Assembly: GCA_028691765.1 (NCBI GenBank)
Contig: JAQUYS010000002.1
Location: forward strand, 1 to 51,645
DNA: 51,645 nt
Reading direction: 5' to 3'
Source of the DNA: Candidatus Nanoarchaeia archaeon
GTDB lineage: Archaea > Nanobdellota > Nanobdellia > Woesearchaeales > SKGA01
Position 1 is the first letter of the stretch; the number at the start of each line of letters is the position of its first letter. The notes under the pieces are model-generated. The model did not search any database. It saw only the letters and a list, made by a program, of their open reading frames with translations, and was not told where the DNA came from. Made by a program: the position numbers and the translations under genes. Positions 3,179 to 39,536 of the stretch are shown here, in pieces.

Positions 3179-4951
3179 ATGCCTATAAGAAGTCCAATTG
3201 TGTCTGTTTTGGGTCATGTCGACCATGGTAAATCTTCAGTTCTAGATGCAATTAGAGATTCTAATATTCTTGCTACTGAGGCCGGAGCAATTACTCAAGC
3301 TATTGGTGCGTCCATTGTTCCCATTGAAACTATTAAATGTAAATGTGGTGATTTGCTTCAAAAAATGAATATTTCTTTGAAAATTCCTGGGTTGTTGTTT
3401 ATAGATACTCCTGGTCACGCTGCTTTTACTTCTTTGAGAAAAAGAGGAGGAAGTTTGGCCGACATTGCGATTGTTGTCATTGATATAAATGAAGGTTTTA
3501 GACCTCAAACTTTTGAAGCGATTGATATTTTACGTGCGGCTAAAACTCCTTTCGTAATTGCTGCGAATAAAGTTGATCTTTCGCCTAATTATAGAATTCC
3601 TCGAGAAATAAATACTCCAATTTTAAAACAAATTAATGATCAAGAACCTAAAGTGATCACTCATATTGAAACTAAGTTATATGAACTTGTTGGTGCGATT
3701 CATGAACGGTTCGGCATATCTGCGGAACGTTTTGATAGGATAGATGATTTTACTAAACAAATCGCAATCATTCCTATTTCTGCTAAAATGAAATTGGGCT
3801 TGTCTGAATTATTAATGGTGATTAGTGCGTTAACTCAAAAATATCTTGAAAATAATTTACAAGTAGATGTTTCAGGTTATGCTAAAGGTTCTATTTTGGA
3901 AGTAAAAGAAGAACAAGGTCTTGGCACAACTCTTGACGTTATTATTTATAATGGTACTTTGAGTGTCGGAGATTGTGTTGTTATTGGCGGTATTGATACT
4001 CCGGTTGTTACTAAAGTTCGGGCTTTATTTGAACCTGCTCCGTTAAGTGAAATGAGAGATAAAAAATCTAATTTTAGTCCTGTTAAAAAAGTGGTCGCAG
4101 CGACTGGTGTTAAAATAAGTTGTCCTGATATTGATGATGTTCTTTCGGGGATGCCTATCAGGTCATGTGAGAATACACTCAAAGGCATTGAAGAAGCCAA
4201 AATTGAAGTTCAAAAAGAAATTGAAAACGCAAAAGTTAAAACTGTTCCTACAGGAATATTAATTAAAGCAGATAATATTGGAAGTCTTGAAGCCTTAGCA
4301 CATATTTTGGGAGAGAAAAAAATTCCTATTAGAAAAGCTTTAGTTGGACCGATATCTAAAAAAGATTTAATTGATGCAGAAGCTAGTTTTGAAGAAGACC
4401 GCTTAAATTCTGTGATTCTTGGATTTAATGTTCCAAATGAGAAATCTACTGAAACTGTAAAGATAATTACTAATGATGTTATTTACCACATTATTGAAGA
4501 TTATGAAAAATGGGTTGAAGATGAAAAGAAAAGAATAGAGCAAGAAAAATTAAAAGACTTATTTAAACCGTGTAAAGTTAAAGTTCTTCAGCATTGTATT
4601 TTTAGACAATCCAATCCTTGTATTGTTGGTGTGGATGTTCAAATGGGCATTCTAAAACAAAATATGGATATGATTAAAAAAGATGGTTCAAAATGTTCTC
4701 ATATAAAAAGTATCGGTTCTGGTAAAGATAATTTATCCTTTGCAGAGAAAGGAAGTCAAGTTGCAATTGGTTTACCAGGAGTTACTGCGGGACGACAATT
4801 AAATGAAGAGGATGTTTTATATTCGGATCTTAATGAAACTCAATATCGCGCATTAAGAGATAATAAGAAATTTTTAAGTGAAGATGACATTGAATTGTTG
4901 AAAGAAATTTCAGAGATTAAGAGAAAACAAAATCCACTTTGGGGTGCGTAA
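3179..4951 (+). CDS. infB: Translation initiation factor aIF5B (IF-2 family GTPase)
   Basis: RSPIVSVLGHVDHGKSS (G1), FIDTPGHAAF (G3), ANKVD (G4). The 590-aa length and domain order are typical of archaeal aIF5B. Confidence 0.95.
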   Translation: MPIRSPIVSVLGHVDHGKSSVLDAIRDSNILATEAGAITQAIGASIVPIETIKCKCGDLLQKMNISLKIPGLLFIDTPGHAAFTSLRKRGGSLADIAIVVIDINEGFRPQTFEAIDILRAAKTPFVIAANKVDLSPNYRIPREINTPILKQINDQEPKVITHIETKLYELVGAIHERFGISAERFDRIDDFTKQIAIIPISAKMKLGLSELLMVISALTQKYLENNLQVDVSGYAKGSILEVKEEQGLGTTLDVIIYNGTLSVGDCVVIGGIDTPVVTKVRALFEPAPLSEMRDKKSNFSPVKKVVAATGVKISCPDIDDVLSGMPIRSCENTLKGIEEAKIEVQKEIENAKVKTVPTGILIKADNIGSLEALAHILGEKKIPIRKALVGPISKKDLIDAEASFEEDRLNSVILGFNVPNEKSTETVKIITNDVIYHIIEDYEKWVEDEKKRIEQEKLKDLFKPCKVKVLQHCIFRQSNPCIVGVDVQMGILKQNMDMIKKDGSKCSHIKSIGSGKDNLSFAEKGSQVAIGLPGVTAGRQLNEEDVLYSDLNETQYRALRDNKKFLSEDDIELLKEISEIKRKQNPLWGA

Positions 4952-5263
4952 CTGAGAGCGGGATTCGGGAAGCGGATTTCAGCAAGGCATACAGCATTAA
5001 GTAAGGCATGCAGAATTTGGGATTCGTTACAGAATTCAATTGTGAATTAAACTCGAAGAGTTTATATTCGCCACGACTCGCCTAGTGTAACTGGCAGAGA
5101 AAACAAAATCCACTTTGGGGTGCGTAACTGAGAGCGGGATTCGGGAAGCGGAATGCAGAGTTCAGCAAGGCATGCGGAAGGCTGAAAGAGTGAAGCAGAA
5201 GACAGGAACCAGCACGCAGCGTTCAGTACAACATGCAGAATGTGGGATTCGTTACAGAATTCA
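4920..5263 (+). repeat. Imperfect tandem duplication of the infB 3' end plus a GC/purine-rich downstream spacer (copy A 4920-5038, copy B 5096-5263)
   Basis: 57 nt at 4920-4976 (last 10 infB codons, the stop, and ctgagagcgggattcgggaagcgga) recur exactly at 5096-5152. ttcagcaaggcat occurs at 4978-4990 and 5161-5173. atgcagaat(t/g)tgggattcgttacagaattca occurs at 5008-5038 and 5233-5263. Copy B carries extra inserts. Confidence 0.85.
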
Positions 5264-5273
5264 GAAGATTACA

Positions 5274-5747
5274 ATGATAAACAAAATAGAAGTCCTAAAT
5301 AGTAAAGATAAAAAACATTTTCTTCAAATAATTAAAGATATTTATGGAATCACTCAATTACTTGAATTTGTTTATTTTAAAGAAGAAGATAAATTATTTG
5401 TCGCTAATAAAGATTTATTTGATTTTGGTTTTGATGAATATCGAGTTAAATCTTTGGGTAATTATATTGGAACGTTTATGAAAGATGGGTTTAGATTTTC
5501 CATAGAAGGGTCTCAGCTATTTGGACAGTTAGCAAATAAAAATATTTTTGAAATAAACGAAGAAGAAAGAAATTTATGGATTTTAGGAGAAACTTTAAAT
5601 TGTGATAAATCTGATTTTGAAGATACTTATGTTTTAATTAAATGTGGTAATGATTTTATTGCGAGTGGAAAAATTAAAGATGGAAAAATTTTAAATTATA
5701 TTTCTAAGAATCGAAAATTAAAAAAAGTTTTTGAAAATGAGGATTAA
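5274..5747 (+). CDS. NIP7-like / PUA-domain RNA-binding protein (ribosome biogenesis-type)
   Basis: ORF track starts at 5115, but the first 53 codons lie in the GC-rich repeat. ATG 5274 gives a 157-aa AT-rich protein. SLGNYIGTF..., EGSQLF, YVLIKCGNDFIASGKIKDGKILNYISKNRKL resemble archaeal Nip7 (N-domain plus C-terminal PUA). Confidence 0.55.
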   Translation: MINKIEVLNSKDKKHFLQIIKDIYGITQLLEFVYFKEEDKLFVANKDLFDFGFDEYRVKSLGNYIGTFMKDGFRFSIEGSQLFGQLANKNIFEINEEERNLWILGETLNCDKSDFEDTYVLIKCGNDFIASGKIKDGKILNYISKNRKLKKVFENED

Positions 5748-6781
5748 ACTAATCCACCAAATAAACTTGCCAATATTACCATGAATATTAAGTAAAATAT
5801 TAATGATCCGAAAACAAACAACGGTATGTATTTTAAACCATTTCTTATGTCTCCTTTTTCAATTATAGAAATTATCATTGAAGATCCTGTTGCAATTATT
5901 GCTAAGGCGAATATTGAGAAATTTTTAAAATTGGATATATCTAAGTCATTGCTGAAATTTAAACTGGATCCTGCAGAGGTTGATGAAATTGCCCCTCCTA
6001 GCGAAGATGTGAATCCTAGAATTATTTGAAGTAATTGATAGGCTAATGCGAATAAAGCAGGACTGATAACTATAACTATTGCTCCAATGAAAATTATGTA
6101 TGCAATGGTTGCTGCAGCCATTTCTTCTTTCAATGCACGTGTTTTCTTTAATGAATCTATTACTTTGTCAATTACAACTACAATTTTACCTCCGCTTGTT
6201 ATTTCTCCAATAATTAATTGTAAATTTCTTTGCAATAGGGGAGATTGATATTTATCTGCGAATTCATTTAGAGCTTCGCCTAAATCGTTTCCAGTCATAA
6301 CTCGTTTAGAAACTAAAGTCATTTCTTCGGCTAATAATCCAAATTCAGGTCTAATTGATGACCACAATGATTGTTCTAAAGATAATCCTCCTTTCATATT
6401 TGTAGATACTAAAACTAAAAAATCAGGAAGAGCCAATTCAATTTCTTGTGTTCTTTTAAATATTTTAACGTTAAAATTAAAATATATTGCAATCATAGTT
6501 AATGTTACTATTAAACCTTGTATTAATGTCCATGCAACAAAAGAGAATATGAATGATAAAATCATTCCTGAGCCTTTTATGAAATAAGGGTATGCTAAAC
6601 TTATGAATGTTACGTATGTTAATATTGCAGTTACCCAAAAAAGAATTCCGAAGAATTTGTATGGAACTTTTCGAATACCTGCTTTTGAAAGATAATTACG
6701 TAAATTTGAACGGACATCTATGTTGAATATTTTTTCAGGCACTAATGCTTTTCCAAATTCTTCTAAAACTGTGATTATCAT
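5744..6781 (-). CDS. Type II secretion system F-domain membrane protein (TadC/FlaJ-like pilus platform subunit)
   Basis: Polytopic 345-aa ORF with a cytoplasmic helical domain (LPDFLVLVSTNMKGGLSLEQSLWSS..., LLQRNLQLIIGEITSGG) between TM blocks. It overlaps or abuts the upstream platform and ATPase genes. Confidence 0.7.
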   Translation of the reverse strand: MIITVLEEFGKALVPEKIFNIDVRSNLRNYLSKAGIRKVPYKFFGILFWVTAILTYVTFISLAYPYFIKGSGMILSFIFSFVAWTLIQGLIVTLTMIAIYFNFNVKIFKRTQEIELALPDFLVLVSTNMKGGLSLEQSLWSSIRPEFGLLAEEMTLVSKRVMTGNDLGEALNEFADKYQSPLLQRNLQLIIGEITSGGKIVVVIDKVIDSLKKTRALKEEMAAATIAYIIFIGAIVIVISPALFALAYQLLQIILGFTSSLGGAISSTSAGSSLNFSNDLDISNFKNFSIFALAIIATGSSMIISIIEKGDIRNGLKYIPLFVFGSLIFYLIFMVILASLFGGLV

Positions 6782-6782
6782 T

Positions 6783-7592
6783 TTATACTTCCATGTTTGG
6801 TCTTGCTGATCTAAATAATGTGATAAACATAAATTGTATTGCTGCCAATATTAATGCAATTATTAAAAATAGCATCATGTCAAGTTTTATTGAAACTAAA
6901 GATGCCACTACTACAAAAAGGGTCATTCCTAAGGAGGGCACAATTATTGCTAGAAGCATAAAAAACATTGTGAGACTCGATAATTTTTTCCCATATTTCA
7001 TTATCTCTAACATTTGTTCATCTGAAATTTCATCTAATGTTGCATCTAAAAATTCTGTGACGTCAATACCTATTTTAAGCGCGTTGGTCATTTGAAATAA
7101 TATTTTTTTTAAATGTTTTGAAGGACAATATTCTGTTGCTTTTTCAAGAGCATTCTCGATTGTTGTTCCTAATTCCATGTCTCGCATGATTTCTCCAAAA
7201 TATTGTGAAGCAACACCATAACTTTTTGAAGCTTCTTCTATTGCATTAATTAAAGGAGCTCCACTGTTTAATTTTATTAATAAAAATCTTCCTGCAAATA
7301 ATACTCCTCGATCAATTTCTTTTGCTTTTTTCCGAATTGAAACTTCTACTTTTTTAATGCTAAGAGTATAAAAGAAAAATGTTGCAACTACGCCTAATAA
7401 AATGGGCATACCTATTTTTGGTTCATCTTTGCTAAAAACTAAAAATGAAAGTATTAAAAACATAAATCCCATCATCAAAGAAGACTTTAAACTTTTTTTA
7501 ACATAATCTTGTGGCGTATCTTTTATTTGTGCGATTCTTAAATTCTTTTTTAAATTTGGTTGACGAGAGGTTAAACGTGAAACTAAACTCAT
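6783..7592 (-). CDS. Type II secretion system F-domain membrane protein (TadB/FlaJ-like)
   Basis: 269 aa with a T2SSF-like soluble domain (FAGRFLLIKLNSGAPLINAIEEASKSYG...) flanked by TM helices. It overlaps the ATPase stop by 4 nt. Confidence 0.65.
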   Translation of the reverse strand: MSLVSRLTSRQPNLKKNLRIAQIKDTPQDYVKKSLKSSLMMGFMFLILSFLVFSKDEPKIGMPILLGVVATFFFYTLSIKKVEVSIRKKAKEIDRGVLFAGRFLLIKLNSGAPLINAIEEASKSYGVASQYFGEIMRDMELGTTIENALEKATEYCPSKHLKKILFQMTNALKIGIDVTEFLDATLDEISDEQMLEIMKYGKKLSSLTMFFMLLAIIVPSLGMTLFVVVASLVSIKLDMMLFLIIALILAAIQFMFITLFRSARPNMEV

Positions 7593-9103
7593 TTATTTGC
7601 ACCTTTTTTTAATTCTTCTGCAAATATTTTTGTATCTAATATTCCTAAATAATATTGTGACATGATTAAACCGATTGTATCTATACCATAATACTTGTTG
7701 TCAAGCATCCACTCCAATATTCTTTCTTTTTCAATTAAATCATCGTCGATTTCTTTTGTAGACATTCCTGTGTAGAATTGTAATTTTTTATAAACTACTT
7801 GAGAATCATTTAAAGGTCCTAATAAATCTTCAGACATTCTTAATTGTTGTACTACATTTGCATCTCCATTTGGTAAAATTTCTGCGATTTGTAATGTTCT
7901 TCTACTACCATTTCTTCTATTTCTGTTTTGAACTACTATTAATCCTAATGAGGCCAACATGGGTTTGGGAATATTTATTGGAGGATTAGTTAATCTAACT
8001 ACAACTTCATCTGCATTGTTTGCGTGTATTGTTGCATATACTGAATGTCCTGTATGCATTGCTTCAAATAATACTGTTGCTTCTTCTTTACGTCTTATTT
8101 CTCCTACAAGTATTCTGTCTGGACGCATACGTAATGAGTTAACTAATAAATCCAGCATTGTAACTCCTCCTTTTCCTTCAGGGTTAGGGAGTCTTGTTGC
8201 CATAGGTACCCAATGTTGTGTTTCGGGTAAAACCAATTCTCTAGTATCTTCTATTGAAAGAATTCTGTGATTTGCTGGAAAGAAATTTGATAAAACGTTA
8301 AGCATAGAAGTTTTACCTGAACCCGTTCCTCCTGCAATTATTATGGACATCTCGTTTTGTATTGCCAACCATAAAAATGCTGCAGCTTGTAATGAAATTG
8401 TTCCTGCTTCTATGAATTTAGTTATGGTCCATGGATCTTTTGCAAACTTTCTGATGGTGATTGTATTTCCTTTTGAAGAAATTGGTTCTAGTGTTGCGTT
8501 AACTCTGTCTCCGCTTTTTAAGTGTGCATCCATTAAAGGTGCAAGATTAGTAATTTCTTTTCCTACTCCTCGTCCAATCATTGATGAGAAATGTCTTATT
8601 CTTGATTCGGTGATTATTTTTATGTTTGCGTCTACCCAACCAAATTTTTTGTGATATGCTCTTACAGGTTCATCGTGATTGTTAATAACTATTTCTTCTA
8701 AGTGTTCATCAGCTAATAAAACATCTACTTTACCAAAACCAAGATTTTCTTCAATTAAATAATTTACAAGCATAGTTTTAGTTTTATCGTCTGTTTTTGG
8801 AAAGTATTTTGAAACTAATCCATGAATTTCTTTTTTGAATCTTGTTTGTACATCGTTTAAATCATTTGACTCAAATTTCTCAACGGCATCTAAATCTACT
8901 TTTTGAATAAATTCTTGTCTTACTTTTTCTAATATTAATTTTGTTGTGTCACTTATGTTTGTTATTTCTATGTTGTAATCTGGAACTGGTTTTTTTGGTT
9001 CTTGGATTATAGTTATATTTATGTTAACATCATTTACAACTAATGAATATTTATCTAATAGTTTTCCTGTTGTTTTTTTTATTGCGTTAATTTCTTCTAC
9101 CAT
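7589..9103 (-). CDS. Type IV pilus/archaellum-type secretion ATPase (FlaI/TadA/VirB11 = GspE superfamily)
   Basis: Walker A IIAGGTGSGKTS, Asp box ILSIEDTRELVL, Walker B LRMRPDRILVGEIR, His box GHSVYATIHA. Confidence 0.9.
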   Translation of the reverse strand: MVEEINAIKKTTGKLLDKYSLVVNDVNINITIIQEPKKPVPDYNIEITNISDTTKLILEKVRQEFIQKVDLDAVEKFESNDLNDVQTRFKKEIHGLVSKYFPKTDDKTKTMLVNYLIEENLGFGKVDVLLADEHLEEIVINNHDEPVRAYHKKFGWVDANIKIITESRIRHFSSMIGRGVGKEITNLAPLMDAHLKSGDRVNATLEPISSKGNTITIRKFAKDPWTITKFIEAGTISLQAAAFLWLAIQNEMSIIIAGGTGSGKTSMLNVLSNFFPANHRILSIEDTRELVLPETQHWVPMATRLPNPEGKGGVTMLDLLVNSLRMRPDRILVGEIRRKEEATVLFEAMHTGHSVYATIHANNADEVVVRLTNPPINIPKPMLASLGLIVVQNRNRRNGSRRTLQIAEILPNGDANVVQQLRMSEDLLGPLNDSQVVYKKLQFYTGMSTKEIDDDLIEKERILEWMLDNKYYGIDTIGLIMSQYYLGILDTKIFAEELKKGANK

Positions 9104-10444
9104 TTATGCACCTAATGTCAATGCTTCTTTTAATCTGATTTTTATTGCTTTGTTATTTGGATGTTTTTTTGCCAAATCTAAAAATATTTTTAATGCCAAA
9201 GATTTGTTATTTGTTTTTATGGCTGAAATTCCTTCAAAATAACTTTTGTTTAATTCTTCTAGATTTTCAGTTGTTTGTTTGGGAAGGGATTTTATTTCTT
9301 CAACTTCTTTTATTTCAGGTATTTCTTTGGATTTTTTGAAATTTAATAGAGGATATGTGTTTTTTAATATGTTGTAAACTTTGTGTTTATATTTTTTATA
9401 TCCTGCAATATTTACTAATTCTTTTTTTATTTTGTTGAAAACGCTTTTTGCTTGTTCGTAATCTTTTTTAGTTATTAGAGATTTGAGTAAATTTAAGCGT
9501 TTGTCAATTATTTCTATGACCATGAAATTTTCATCTGGTGAAGAATCTGAAAGAGGAACGTTGGGAGCGGGGTTCTGGTTGCTGCGTTCTGGTTGCTGCG
9601 TTCTGGTTGCTGCGTTCTGGGTTCTGGAGACGGTTGTCAGATTATTTGTTTTATTTTCTTGAGAAAGTTTTTGTTTGAATTGAATATATTTTTCTCCAAA
9701 TTTTTGTTCTAGTTTCTGTTCTAGTTTCTGAATTTCATTCTTGGTATTTTCTTCCATTTCTTTTTTTACTTTTAGCAACATAGTTTCTCTTTCTTGTTTA
9801 TATTTTTCTTGTAAATTTTCATATTCTCTTTCGCTTTCTAATTCAAGTTTTTGTTTAAATTCGAGCATTAATTTTTCTCTTAGTTGTTTTTCTTTTAAAT
9901 CGGGCAAATTTATTGGAAAATTTAAACCTGAAGAAACTGAAAGTATTGGTGAGCCAGACATAACATTTACGGAAGACGACGTGCTGGAGGCAAGGTTCTG
10001 GTTGCTGCGTTCTGGTTGCTGCGTTCTGGTTGCTGGTTGTATTGGTGTTTTGTTTTTAGGTTGATCATCAAATCCTTCAAATCCGCTACTTCCTGATTCA
10101 ACTTCTTTTTCTTCGATTTGTTCATCTTCTAAATTTAAATTATGTTTGTTACAGAAATCTACAAGTTGAGAATACACTTTTTTTATGATTAAATCCATGG
10201 ATGCTCTTTTTGGACTATTTCTTGCTAATTTCCCATAGGCTCGTTTTGCATCTTTATAGATTAATTTTGCTTTTATTAATTCATTGTTTTCAAGAGCGGT
10301 TCTTATTTCTGCTTCATAATCTTTAACTCCAAATACTACTTCTTGACTATCGTAGGGTCTTGTTTTTACTTGAGATAACGAACGTTTAATTTCATCTAAG
10401 AAATTGTTTATGTCTTCTTCCAAAAATTCATTTATTGTAATCAT
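9104..10444 (-). CDS. Hypothetical coiled-coil protein with TPR-like ends and two GC-rich repeat insertions (pilus operon)
   Basis: 446-aa ORF abutting the ATPase start. It has a central Lys/Glu-rich coiled coil and helical-repeat-like termini. ATRTQQPERSNQN occurs twice, encoded by the 14-nt tandem repeats. Confidence 0.6.
   Translation of the reverse strand: MITINEFLEEDINNFLDEIKRSLSQVKTRPYDSQEVVFGVKDYEAEIRTALENNELIKAKLIYKDAKRAYGKLARNSPKRASMDLIIKKVYSQLVDFCNKHNLNLEDEQIEEKEVESGSSGFEGFDDQPKNKTPIQPATRTQQPERSNQNLASSTSSSVNVMSGSPILSVSSGLNFPINLPDLKEKQLREKLMLEFKQKLELESEREYENLQEKYKQERETMLLKVKKEMEENTKNEIQKLEQKLEQKFGEKYIQFKQKLSQENKTNNLTTVSRTQNAATRTQQPERSNQNPAPNVPLSDSSPDENFMVIEIIDKRLNLLKSLITKKDYEQAKSVFNKIKKELVNIAGYKKYKHKVYNILKNTYPLLNFKKSKEIPEIKEVEEIKSLPKQTTENLEELNKSYFEGISAIKTNNKSLALKIFLDLAKKHPNNKAIKIRLKEALTLGA
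9572..9627 (-). repeat. 14-nt tandem repeat gttctggttgctgc x3 plus two partial units (inside CDS 9104..10444)
   Basis: Units at 9572-9585, 9586-9599 and 9600-9613, then gttctgg twice (9614-9627). GC-rich against an AT-rich gene. Minus-strand translation is AATRTQQPERSNQN. Confidence 0.9.
9995..10035 (-). repeat. Second copy of the 14-nt tandem repeat tract (2 full units plus 13 nt)
   Basis: gttctggttgctgc at 9995-10008 and 10009-10022, then gttctggttgctg at 10023-10035. Encodes ATRTQQPERSNQN again. Confidence 0.9.
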
Positions 10445-33210: not shown

Positions 33211-33312
33211 GGACTCGTGGCCTAGCTTGGATAAGGCGACAGCCTTCTAAGACCTTATTTGGTTAACGGAGCAAGCTGTAGATCGAGGGTTCAAATCCCT
33301 CCGGGTCCGCCA
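33211..33312 (+). tRNA. tRNA-Arg(UCU) with a 24-nt canonical (37/38) intron, CCA encoded
   Basis: Acceptor ggactcg:cgggtcc, D arm gcct-agcttggata-aggc, anticodon stem acagc:gctgt with loop ctTCTa[intron 33250-33273]a, T arm gaggg-ttcaaat-ccctc, discriminator g, then cca. Confidence 0.88.
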
Positions 33313-33359
33313 TTTATGTTATTCTTTATAGTTGGATGTTATTAGATGTAGTTCTTCGT

Positions 33360-33454
33360 GACACGGAGGTAGGGAACAAAGTGAGTGTTTCTTTGGGTCC
33401 GCCACATATTCTTAGTTTTGATTTAGAAGGACACGGAGGTAGGGAACAAAGTGA
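33360..33454 (+). repeat. Two perfect 25-nt direct repeats (gacacggaggtagggaacaaagtga) flanking a 45-nt spacer that contains a copy of the tRNA-Arg 3' end
   Basis: Repeats at 33360-33384 and 33430-33454. The spacer contains gggtccgcca (33395-33404), identical to the tRNA 3' end at 33303-33312. Confidence 0.85.
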
Positions 33455-35631: not shown

Positions 35632-37074
35632 TTAATAATTCTTAGCGAAATAAATTTTATATTTAGCTTTTTCACCGCAACAAACACATTTGGAATTTGG
35701 TTCAGGTTTGTCTTCTCCTGTTGGCCGACATCTTGTTGTTGCTCCGCCTGTATCTGTTTTGATTTGTTCTTCACACTCTTTGTTTCCACAATGATGTGCT
35801 AAAACTAATTTCTTTTCTTCTATTGCGTTCTTTAATTCGTCATATGTGGTGGCTTTTGTTTTTCTTTCTTCTACTTTTTTTCTAGCCTTTTCCAGCATTT
35901 CTTTTTGTATTTGTTTTAGTTTTTTATCTACAAAAGCGACTAAATCATTTAATGGTACAATTTCTTTTTGTCCGTTAAATCTTGAAACTACGACACAAGA
36001 TTGTTTTTCTAAATCTTTTGGTCCTAATTCTATTCTTAATGGAACTCCTTTTAATTCCCATTCGTTGAATTTGAATCCAGGGGATTTATCTGCTCGGTCA
36101 TCTAAGTGTGCATTGAATTTTTTTAATTTTTTATGAATTTCTTTTGCTTTCTTCATAACTTCAGGAGATTTATCTTGTGCAATTGGAACTATAACTGCTT
36201 TTATTGGTGCCATTTTTGGAGGTAGGACTAATCCTTTATCATCTCCATGCACCATAACTAATGCTCCTAAAAGTCTTGTTGAAAATCCCCAACTGGATTG
36301 CCAAGGTGTATGTTCTTCGCCATCTTCACCATGAAATGAAATGTTAAATGCTTTTGCGAAACCTTGTCCTAAATTATGTGAGGTTCCTGATTGTAATGCT
36401 TTTCCATCAGGCATAAATGATTCAAAGGTATATGTTCTTATTGCTCCCGGAAATGTTTCTTTTTTGGATTTTATTCCTGTGATTGCAGGTATTGCTAAAA
36501 GTTCTTCAGACATTTTTGCATATTCTTTGAGCATCATTTTAGTTTCTTTTTCGCATTCTTTTTCTGTTGAATATACGCAATGTCCTTCTTGCCATAAGAA
36601 TTCTCTTGATCGTAAAAATATTTTTACATCGCTAATTTCCCATCTAACTATGTTTGCCCATTGATTTATTCGCAGGGGCAAATCTCTATGTGAACGAATC
36701 CATTTTGAATAGGAGTCATACATTATGGTTTCTGATGTTGGTCTTATTGCTAGTCTTTCCTCGTTATCTGATTTTGTTGAAATCCAAGCTACTTCAGGTG
36801 CAAAACCCTCCACATGTTGTGCTTCTCTATGAAAAAATGATTCTGGTATGAATAATGGAAAATATGCATTTTGAACATTTAATTTATTTAATCTTTGGTT
36901 AAAATAATCCACTATTGATTGCCATAATGAATATCCTAATGGACGTATAACTGCACAACCTCTAACTACAGAATAATCTGCAAGTTCGCTTTTAACAACA
37001 ACTTGAGAATACCATTCTGGCATGTTCTCTTCTTTTTTGACAGTTATACCCATTTCGTTTGCCATTATTTGCAC
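35632..37074 (-). CDS. proS: Prolyl-tRNA synthetase, archaeal/eukaryotic type
   Basis: Class II motifs (AIRPTSET, FLWQEGH, GTSHNLGQ), an anticodon-binding domain, and a C-terminal Zn-binding domain ending CVCCGEKAKYKIYFAKNY. Confidence 0.93.
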   Translation of the reverse strand: MQIMANEMGITVKKEENMPEWYSQVVVKSELADYSVVRGCAVIRPLGYSLWQSIVDYFNQRLNKLNVQNAYFPLFIPESFFHREAQHVEGFAPEVAWISTKSDNEERLAIRPTSETIMYDSYSKWIRSHRDLPLRINQWANIVRWEISDVKIFLRSREFLWQEGHCVYSTEKECEKETKMMLKEYAKMSEELLAIPAITGIKSKKETFPGAIRTYTFESFMPDGKALQSGTSHNLGQGFAKAFNISFHGEDGEEHTPWQSSWGFSTRLLGALVMVHGDDKGLVLPPKMAPIKAVIVPIAQDKSPEVMKKAKEIHKKLKKFNAHLDDRADKSPGFKFNEWELKGVPLRIELGPKDLEKQSCVVVSRFNGQKEIVPLNDLVAFVDKKLKQIQKEMLEKARKKVEERKTKATTYDELKNAIEEKKLVLAHHCGNKECEEQIKTDTGGATTRCRPTGEDKPEPNSKCVCCGEKAKYKIYFAKNY

Positions 37075-39315: not shown

Positions 39316-39536
39316 GGACTTGTAGCCTAGTATGGAAACGGAATGCAGGAAACAGAATTCAGAAGGCGGTTTCTGCGTTTTTGTATAAATAGGGCGACAG
39401 CCTCCTAAGCCGGAATGCAGTATTTGGAATGCAGATTGCTGTATTCGGTTAACGGTGTAAGCTGTAGGTCGGGAGTTCAAATCTGTGTTCTGTACAGTGA
39501 ATTCAGAATGCAGGGAAATTCTTCCCAAGTCCGCCA
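39316..39536 (+). tRNA. tRNA-Arg(CCU) interrupted by three introns (D-loop 39336-39388, anticodon loop 39408-39459, T-loop/stem junction 39483-39520), CCA encoded
   Basis: The exons align block by block with tRNA-Arg(UCU): ggacttg ta gcct agtatgg|ata gggc g acagc ctCCTa|a gctgt aggtc gggag ttcaaat|cttcc caagtcc g cca. After removing the three inserts a 78-nt cloverleaf remains. Intron borders are ambiguous by 1-2 nt. Confidence 0.78.

Follow-up and report, generated by a model that had tools for sequence, protein, structure and literature searches.

Degenerate heptamer arrays in the predicted introns of an archaeal tRNA-Arg(CCU) gene and in the spacer downstream of infB

The stretch analysed here (referred to as the window) comprises 51,645 nucleotides of contig JAQUYS010000002.1, belonging to the Candidatus Nanoarchaeia archaeon assembly GCA_028691765.1, and has a G+C content of 30%. 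It carries a tRNA-Arg(CCU) gene with three predicted introns and, 34 kb away, a spacer between infB (encoding aIF5B) and a gene for a PUA-domain protein, and a small set of identical 9-14-mers recurs in both places. Judged by sequence comparison, these repeated words appear to be what is best preserved of degenerate, in-phase heptamer arrays that form a lineage-specific family, and they bear on the way in which tRNA introns of archaea change, spread and grow alike.

Three introns and a spacer with a common motif

The tRNA-Arg(CCU) gene lies on the plus strand at 39316-39536, with exons at 39316-39335, 39389-39407, 39460-39481 and 39520-39536 and an encoded CCA. Unspliced, it is called neither by ARAGORN nor by Rfam, and automated annotation of such genomes would score tRNA-Arg(CCU) as absent. 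Removal of the three introns in silico yields a 78-nt product with a restored canonical cloverleaf, which ARAGORN calls as tRNA-Arg(cct). Intron 1 (39336-39388, 53 nt) is placed in the D-loop at about 20/21, intron 2 (39408-39459, 52 nt) at the canonical 37/38 and intron 3 (39482-39519, 38 nt) in the T-loop at 59/60, all on the plus strand and all at known archaeal intron sites, 20/21 and 59/60 being listed as non-canonical (PMC4090602).

All three can be folded into bulge-helix-bulge (BHB) junctions: the central helix of intron 1 is GUAU/GUAU (4/4 pairs) with an outer helix of 4 bp, that of intron 2 is CUCC/GGUG (3/4) with the anticodon stem as outer helix, and that of intron 3 is UUCA/GGAA (3/4) with a 5-bp outer helix formed by the T stem. 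Because of these junctions, including a compensatory change in the central helix of intron 1 (GTAT/GTAT in the window, GTTT/AAAC in the relative L211), the insertions look like real introns of the predicted BHB type. DPANN lineages are described as having disrupted tRNA genes and broad-specificity splicing endonucleases (PMC5829648), and the present gene resembles the multi-intron tRNA genes of such archaea in carrying several relaxed BHB introns (PMC5829648; PMC3239211). No gene for the splicing endonuclease EndA was identified among the open reading frames (ORFs) scanned.

An initial annotation of the window had reported short motifs shared by these introns and the infB spacer, and every match was found at its reported position on the plus strand. 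CGGAATGCAG occurs at 5149 in the spacer, at 39339-39348 in intron 1 and at 39411 in intron 2; ACAGAATTCAGAAG occurs at 5254 in the spacer and at 39352-39365 in intron 1. Intron 2 also holds GGAATGCAG at 39426, and in intron 3 GAATTCAG (39499) overlaps AGAATGCAG (39505). A further pair, ATGCAGAAT[TG]TGGG at 5008 and 5233, is not independent, its members being the two copies of a tandem duplication (offset 176 nt) within the spacer. All three introns thus carry the motif, as had been claimed, with the caveat that they belong to a single gene.

The spacer itself (4952-5273, plus strand) extends from the infB stop codon (4949-4951) to the ATG of the PUA-domain gene at 5274. It consists of a first, diverged array copy (4952-~5038), a 57-nt piece (5039-5095), a repeat of the final ~30 nt of infB (5096-5127) and a second array copy (5128-5273) which includes the occurrences at 5149 and 5254. 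Its direct repeats measure 63 nt at 97% identity (offset 176) and 52 nt at 85%, and no inverted-repeat pair was found in 4850-5350.

The motif family exceeds what composition-matched sequence would produce. CGGAATGCAG was observed three times against 0.01 expected, a count reached in 0/100 shuffles. GAATKCAG occurs nine times in the window, and eight of these lie on one strand in two loci which together cover about 1% of it; the eight occurrences in introns and spacer compare with 0.06 expected and were reached in 0/5000 dinucleotide-preserving local shuffles, as was the presence of the motif in all four elements (three introns and spacer, 0/5000). The link between the introns and a non-tRNA locus, which had also been proposed, is borne out by pairwise forward local alignments of introns 1, 2, 3 and the spacer, all six of which beat shuffles (z 3.2-5.1). 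The exact stretches that the introns have in common are only 8-14 nt long, and near full-length identity between introns is not seen.

The elements are periodic. The heptamer unit is approximately RAWKCAG, more loosely nnnnC(A/T/G)G. Read in register, intron 1 contains GAAACGG AATGCAG GAAACAG AATTCAG AAGGCGG; intron 2 is made up of seven in-phase heptamers, AAGCCGG AATGCAG TATTTGG AATGCAG ATTGCTG TATTCGG TTAACGG; and intron 3 contains AAATCTG TGTTCTG TACAGTG AATTCAG AATGCAG. The spacer reads AGAGCGG GATTCGG GAAGCGG AATGCAG AGTTCAG and, further on, GAAGCAG AAGACAG GAACCAG CACGCAG CGTTCAG. Each intron and the spacer have a lag-7 self-identity of 0.43-0.51, as opposed to ~0.25 in local shuffles (P 0.005 to <0.0004), and the five strongest period-7 windows of the 51.6 kb are intron 2, two spacer stretches and two arrays in the ORF at 9104-10444.

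When chains were defined as four or more in-phase units that end in CAG, CTG, CGG or TGG, seven arrays were obtained in the window against 0.06 expected, with in-phase chains reaching 5-8 units. They are confined to three loci, namely the introns, the infB spacer and ORF 9104-10444, and in 103 kb of sequence from relatives chains of at least four units were found only at the same loci. By Tandem Repeats Finder, the ORF arrays have period 7/14 and intron 1 has period 14. Head-to-tail 7-nt units of this kind are those of a tandem heptanucleotide repeat similar to short tandemly repeated repetitive (STRR) or variable-number tandem repeat sequences. As to length variation, indels of 7 nt and of 39+3 nt distinguish the two spacer copies and one of 7 nt occurs at ORF array 2, but changes of 8, 10 and ~61 nt are found too; indels made strictly of 7-nt units were considered and not upheld, many of them not being multiples of 7.

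The coding arrays lie on the minus strand, array 2 at 9572-9620 ((AACCAGAACGCAGC) x3.5, period 14 with 100% matches in Tandem Repeats Finder) and array 1 at 9995-10035 (the same 14-mer AACCAGAACGCAGC, x2.9). They are perfect 14-mers, and the unit AACCAGAACGCAGC is 13/14 identical to the spacer sequence AACCAGCACGCAGC (about 5207-5220). ORF 9104-10444 (minus strand) is part of a type IV pilus/archaellum-like cluster with a T2SSE ATPase gene (7589-9103) and a T2SSF gene (5744-7592). The perfect 14-nt repeats are translated in each of the three frames in turn (ATRTQQPERSNQN), and this linker of the encoded protein would therefore tolerate slippage-generated sequence.

In the introns the motif is part of predicted structure. 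A 10-bp inner helix of intron 3 has CAGAATGCAG as its 3' strand and CUGUGUUCUG as partner, and in the analysis of BHB geometry CAGAAUGCAG of the motif pairs with CUGUGUUCUG. Read from the sequence alongside the minimum free energy fold, GCCGGAATGCAG can pair with CTGTATTCGGT in the inner helix of intron 2, where the motif portion GCCGGAAUGCAG can pair with CUGUAUUCGGU, and in intron 1 GCAG(G)AAAC can pair with GUUUCUGC. In the folds, the intron motif lies mostly within helices and the spacer is unstructured (z +0.42). A structured non-coding RNA in the spacer was accordingly rejected, the single-copy allele of the sister-strain contig L114 being the unstructured sequence in question. A 210-aa ORF with a TTG start (5115-5747) runs across array copy 2 and was taken as non-coding; the equivalent frame of the relative L001 has a stop.

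Comparison with relatives and sister strains

The relatives compared are L001 (the 94% relative) and, at 58-79% protein identity, L110 (from the same genome as L002), L211 (from the same genome as L003) and L111; TruD identity to the window is 61% for L110 and 58% for L111. Four sister-strain contigs from ENA and JGI (L108, L109, L114 and L235) share ~98% DNA identity with the window. Comparison of the tRNA locus covers L108/L109, L110, L111 and L211, the 94% relative entering through its spacer rather than its tRNA locus.

In L110, L111 and L211 the tRNA-Arg(CCU) gene has three introns at the same positions as in the window, and all three sites are occupied in L108 as well, no presence/absence polymorphism being seen. 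The lengths of introns 1/2/3 are 34/60/42 nt in L110, 45/52/44 nt in L111 and 39/37/44 nt in L211, compared with 53/52/38 nt in the window. GAATKCAG is absent from the introns of these three relatives, which also lack similarity to the spacers of the window lineage; significant intron-spacer similarity is restricted to that lineage, and part of intron 2 (GCAGA..CTGTATTC) can be aligned between the window and L110. The expansion of the introns by insertion of a GC-rich module, as first proposed, is thus contradicted: three orthologous introns of similar length (34-45, 37-60 and 37-44 nt) exist without the motif, and therefore the introns were not created or lengthened by it. The introns and their size predate the motif, and it is their interiors that appear to have been rewritten in the window lineage. 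Almost all of 74 other listed archaeal tRNA-Arg(CCU) genes with the same anticodon arm are without even the canonical intron.

A tRNA-Arg(UCU) gene lies at 33211-33312 on the plus strand (Rfam tRNA match, 55 bits), with a 24-nt canonical intron at 33250-33273 whose BHB central helix pairs 4/4. The core of this intron, TATTTGGTTAACGG (33256-33269), matches intron 2 of the CCU gene at 13/14; the 3' core TATTCGGTTAACGG of intron 2 is common to both, and TATT[TC]GGTTAACGG occurs at 33256 and 39442 on the plus strand. Intron 2 had been described as this UCU core with about 28 extra nucleotides, and the arithmetic is right (52 against 24 nt). In the L111 genome, however, the UCU intron is ~50 nt long and unrelated to the CCU intron 2, which, together with the 37-60 nt lengths of the orthologous introns 2, argues against a core enlarged by an insert, and the shared core is specific to the window lineage. 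Introns 2 and 3 are alike within L211 and within L111, the sequence differing between the two genomes, an outcome that would be expected of concerted evolution within a gene.

Between ~98%-identical strains, structural differences fall on the arrays. Over ~14 kb the only short ones are at intron 1, at ORF array 2 and in the spacer, which measures 146 nt against 322 nt in the window. In the comparison with L108, the 100-nt bin containing intron 1 has 22 differences, with none for ~900 nt upstream and ~300 nt downstream, and an alignment of the intron 1 alleles of the window and of L108/L109 has 60% identity across 55 columns, the surrounding DNA being identical for more than 1 kb. The sister allele (AAGAAATACAGATAGCAGACATTCAGCAACCTGTTTTCTGCACAA, 45 nt) is without the motif and shows no similarity to the spacers (z 0.7-1.5). 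Intron 1 of L111 is 68% identical to the sister allele and 50% to the window allele, so the window allele is the derived one. The latter matches the L001 spacer at 25/26 aligned bases, with gaps of 7 nt and 1 nt. Two ~98%-identical strains with different intron 1 alleles in identical DNA constitute a natural, datable case of intron change.

At the other two loci, 9 kb of alignment with L114 contains indels of 176 nt (spacer) and of 7 and 10 nt (ORF array 2) only, and the spacer and ORF array 2 are the only dense mismatch patches besides two 50-nt bins with 7-8 differences. The spacer is 322 nt long in the window, 146 nt and single-copy in L114 and ~86 nt, with the module, in L001; both motif-bearing ends are kept in these three and the middle varies. 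In L003 the spacer is 65 nt and unrelated, and in L002 it is 4 nt. ORF arrays 1 and 2 have an exact stretch of 42 nt in common in the window and another, different one of 29 nt in L114, from which it follows that array 2 would have been overwritten from array 1 independently in each strain. The suggestion that the module is mobile or recombinogenic therefore stands in its second half, in view of these hot spots and rewritten ORF arrays, and not in its first, inverted repeats, target-site duplications and extra copies not having been found.

Explanations for the shared sequence

The explanation we favour, and would put at an even chance, is that neutral heptamer arrays have been homogenised by slippage and short-patch ectopic gene conversion, where it is the process and the neutrality that we infer. 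The arrays would occupy sequence under little sequence-specific constraint, namely the interiors of three BHB introns, the infB/PUA spacer and a low-complexity linker of a pilus-type-operon protein. Splicing endonuclease requires only the BHB junction, and the intron interior would therefore be free to change; arrays and their complements would form the inner helix below the junction, and rewritten interiors that still form a helix would survive. Slipped-strand or unequal exchange could lengthen and shorten the arrays, and short-patch ectopic gene conversion might take place both among arrays and among alleles, possibly anchored in the conserved tRNA exons. The outcome would be arrays which are alike within a genome (concerted evolution) and hypervariable between strains, so that the locus would seem to act by concerted evolution of existing introns, not by intron gain.

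Several observations weigh against this explanation. Indels in introns and alleles are often not multiples of 7 (8, 8, 6, 10 and ~61 nt), more than slippage by whole units can account for on its own. Introns 2 and 3 of L111 and intron 2 of L211 show the 7-nt C(A/T)G phase again despite their different sequences, so that constraint, and not neutrality, could be at work. In transcribed sense every array reads nnnnCAG, which an RNA-level role would fit as well. Window intron 1, which differs from the sister allele along its whole length, could be an import from another lineage and not a product of intragenomic conversion. The 176-nt spacer duplication is found in one assembly only, the Logan contig obtained from the infB look-up stopping exactly at the repeat, and the data as a whole amount to ~50 kb of the host genome and a few strain contigs.

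Chance, or the local composition of GC-richer islands in an AT-rich genome, might be invoked on the grounds that the window as a whole has no more than 9 occurrences of GAATKCAG where 3.7 are expected, yet the local shuffles, the simultaneous presence in all four elements and the count of CGGAATGCAG given above refute it, and we attach practically no weight to it. A putative recognition site is a more serious candidate, albeit an improbable one: GAAU(G/U)CAG heptamers would be bound by an RNA-binding protein or a trans-acting RNA and would link the processing of pre-tRNA-Arg(CCU) with expression of the infB/PUA operon. The protein encoded downstream of the spacer is one candidate factor, its match to a PUA-like RNA-binding domain (24.3 bits) falling below the Pfam threshold of 27.6. 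The sense orientation of every array in its transcript, the persistence of the 7-nt phase in distant orthologous introns, the conservation of the motif-bearing spacer ends in the window, L114 and L001, and the purine-rich, unstructured and hence accessible nature of the spacer array would agree with such a site. Against it, the exact motif is absent from the introns of L110, L111 and L211 and the L002 spacer is 4 nt long, so that any function would be very young; the motif is mostly buried in helices in the introns; the sister-strain intron 1 is without it; and the likeness beyond the motif (25/26 aligned bases) points to copying, not convergence. Intron-spacer duplex energies were no better than those of shuffles, 72, 58 and 4 of 300 shuffles being as good for introns 1, 2 and 3, with intron 3 a marginal exception. 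In a broader and somewhat less probable version, the arrays would not be neutral: 7-nt-phased C(A/U)G would be kept in these BHB introns over deep divergence by a reading factor, and the signal copied into the infB operon mRNA, coupling tRNA-Arg(CCU) maturation to a translation/ribosome-biogenesis operon, or else an RNA-level copy-and-paste would be tied to intron excision. The factor could be the splicing machinery (a BHB being a 4-bp helix plus a 3-nt bulge, i.e. 7) or a dedicated RNA-binding protein, for example the PUA-domain protein.

Copying of introns themselves is about as doubtful as a shared recognition site. By BHB-intron transposition or RNA-mediated copying, a CCU intron or pre-tRNA fragment would have been placed in other BHB sites of the gene and in the 3' untranslated region of infB, the spacer being a decayed landing site, to which its unmatched 57-nt piece could be a witness. 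Related sequence at different intron positions has a precedent in the Thermoproteales, where tRNA introns at different positions are related in sequence and this was read as transposition (PMC4090602); the window gene is similar in having BHB introns at several positions, including 20/21 and 59/60, with sequence in common across sites, and in both cases the mechanism is thought to act at the DNA level. Unlike in the Thermoproteales, where the case is made on near full-length identity and on recent gain (absence in close relatives), neither of which is found here, sharing takes place within one gene, an mRNA spacer and a coding linker, involves only short heptamer motifs of 8-14 nt, and concerns old, orthologous introns whose interiors alone have been rewritten, with no intron gain seen. 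In a natural archaeal population of Caldiarchaeum, one tRNA gene likewise varies among close members in the content or sequence of its introns (PMC3293823), which lends the transposition view some support; the change there involves a 1.8-kb recombinase-encoding element, intron gain and gene splitting (PMC3293823), whereas here an allele is replaced in identical DNA without any element. Further difficulties are that all introns are at the same positions in relatives down to 58% TruD identity, that the spacer has neither a BHB-capable fold nor an inverted repeat, and that no reverse transcriptase or recombinase was seen adjoining the tRNA or the spacer locus. Still less probable is an autonomous or non-autonomous mobile mini-element inserting into introns and spacers. 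Identical 10-14-mers at unlinked loci, together with a spacer element which is present in the window, L114 and L001 and absent in L002, would suit one, and short dispersed non-coding repeats in intergenic DNA are also typical of repetitive extragenic palindromes or bacterial interspersed mosaic elements and of miniature inverted-repeat transposable elements. The latter have palindromic or inverted-repeat structure and defined ends, neither of which was found here: the copies have no terminal inverted repeats, no target-site duplication and no common ends, and the introns predate the motif. No extra module copy was found in the window or in the relatives' loci, an nhmmer profile of the module gave no new copy in the other loci compared, and among the matches listed from 185,579 species genomes only the orthologous L001 spacer stood out, the other 16 being bacterial and consistent with chance.

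A further parallel is bacterial. Mazel et al. (1990) reportedly described the STRR sequences of cyanobacteria as tandem heptanucleotide arrays, which are likewise found at several dispersed loci and variable between strains, and lie in non-coding DNA. STRR arrays are near-perfect and present in many copies per genome, whereas those described here are degenerate, are located at three loci so far and occupy introns and a coding linker. STRR sequences have been used for strain fingerprinting (PMC5088731). The passages of PMC5829648 considered here contain no mention of repeat families common to introns and non-tRNA loci in DPANN archaea. If the arrays are neutral, short-patch copying would make old introns look related without transposition, which calls for caution when mobility is deduced from such likeness; if they are functional, they would represent a new cis-element common to pre-tRNA and mRNA in a DPANN archaeon.

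Neighbouring genes and other tRNA-Arg(CCU) introns

The host is a Woesearchaeota-like archaeon of the DPANN group with AT-rich DNA. Uncultured archaea, one of them labelled Woesearchaeota, have proteins with 94%, 80% and 79% identity to its aIF5B/infB protein, and the homologues of TruD and of an M18 aminopeptidase carry Woesearchaeota or Nanoarchaeota names. Gene order at the tRNA locus is conserved (a GatB/GAD-domain gene, LPG-synthase, tRNA, TruD). The LPG-synthase neighbour, used as a query against species-genome contigs, gave no relatives among the matches listed, and exact-protein look-ups with the PUA gene gave no match. Rfam, both at the gathering threshold and at E up to 5, had no match in the introns or the infB spacer, and identified no tRNAs in the loci of nine relatives.

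The 57-nt spacer piece at 5039-5095 (ATTGTGAATTAAACTCGAAGAGTTTATATTCGCCACGACTCGCCTAGTGTAACTGGC) matches neither other parts of the window nor any of the loci compared, and the GACTCG..CCTAG within it bears a vague likeness to a tRNA 5' end. Immediately after tRNA-Arg(UCU), the window has 92 extra nucleotides (33313-33404) relative to the sister-strain contig L235. At its end this insert repeats the 3' terminus of the tRNA (GGGTCCGCCA at 33303-33312 and 33395-33404), and the region 33303-33454 holds a perfect 25-nt duplicate, GACACGGAGGTAGGGAACAAAGTGA, at 33360 and 33430. Its architecture is that of the infB spacer duplication, with the 3' end of the upstream gene doubled and the upstream copy diverged; possible origins are a scar left by integration, a tandem duplication and strain alleles wrongly assembled together. 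The ProRS gene at 35632-37074 (minus strand) differs from L108 in ~50 columns per 100 nt across its whole length, between flanks which are 98-100% identical, as if the entire gene had been replaced within the population by another allele or by a xenologue.

Box C of a C/D small RNA (sRNA) is RUGAUGA and box D is CUGA. An intron-encoded box C/D sRNA was considered for the window gene and rejected, since UGAUGA is absent from all three introns and no Rfam match was obtained at E up to 5. In other Woesearchaeota and related archaea (L168, L170, L179, L182, L197 and L213), tRNA-Arg(CCU) has canonical introns of 63-74 nt with a box C-like ATGATGA, a box D-like CTGA/CCGA and a conserved tail AGAGTTAGC(A/C/T)GAGGC, which suggests that an intron-encoded C/D sRNA, absent from the window, is carried by the gene in those lineages. 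In a further group (L030, L037, L043 and L079, comprising Woesearchaeota and a mislabelled 'Methanosarcinales') the gene has a T-loop intron whose length varies widely, from ~40 nt to over 150 nt; these introns are assembled from common modules, e.g. GCT(C/A)AGCTGGCACGC, and probably constitute another case of modular, fast-changing non-canonical introns in tRNA-Arg(CCU).

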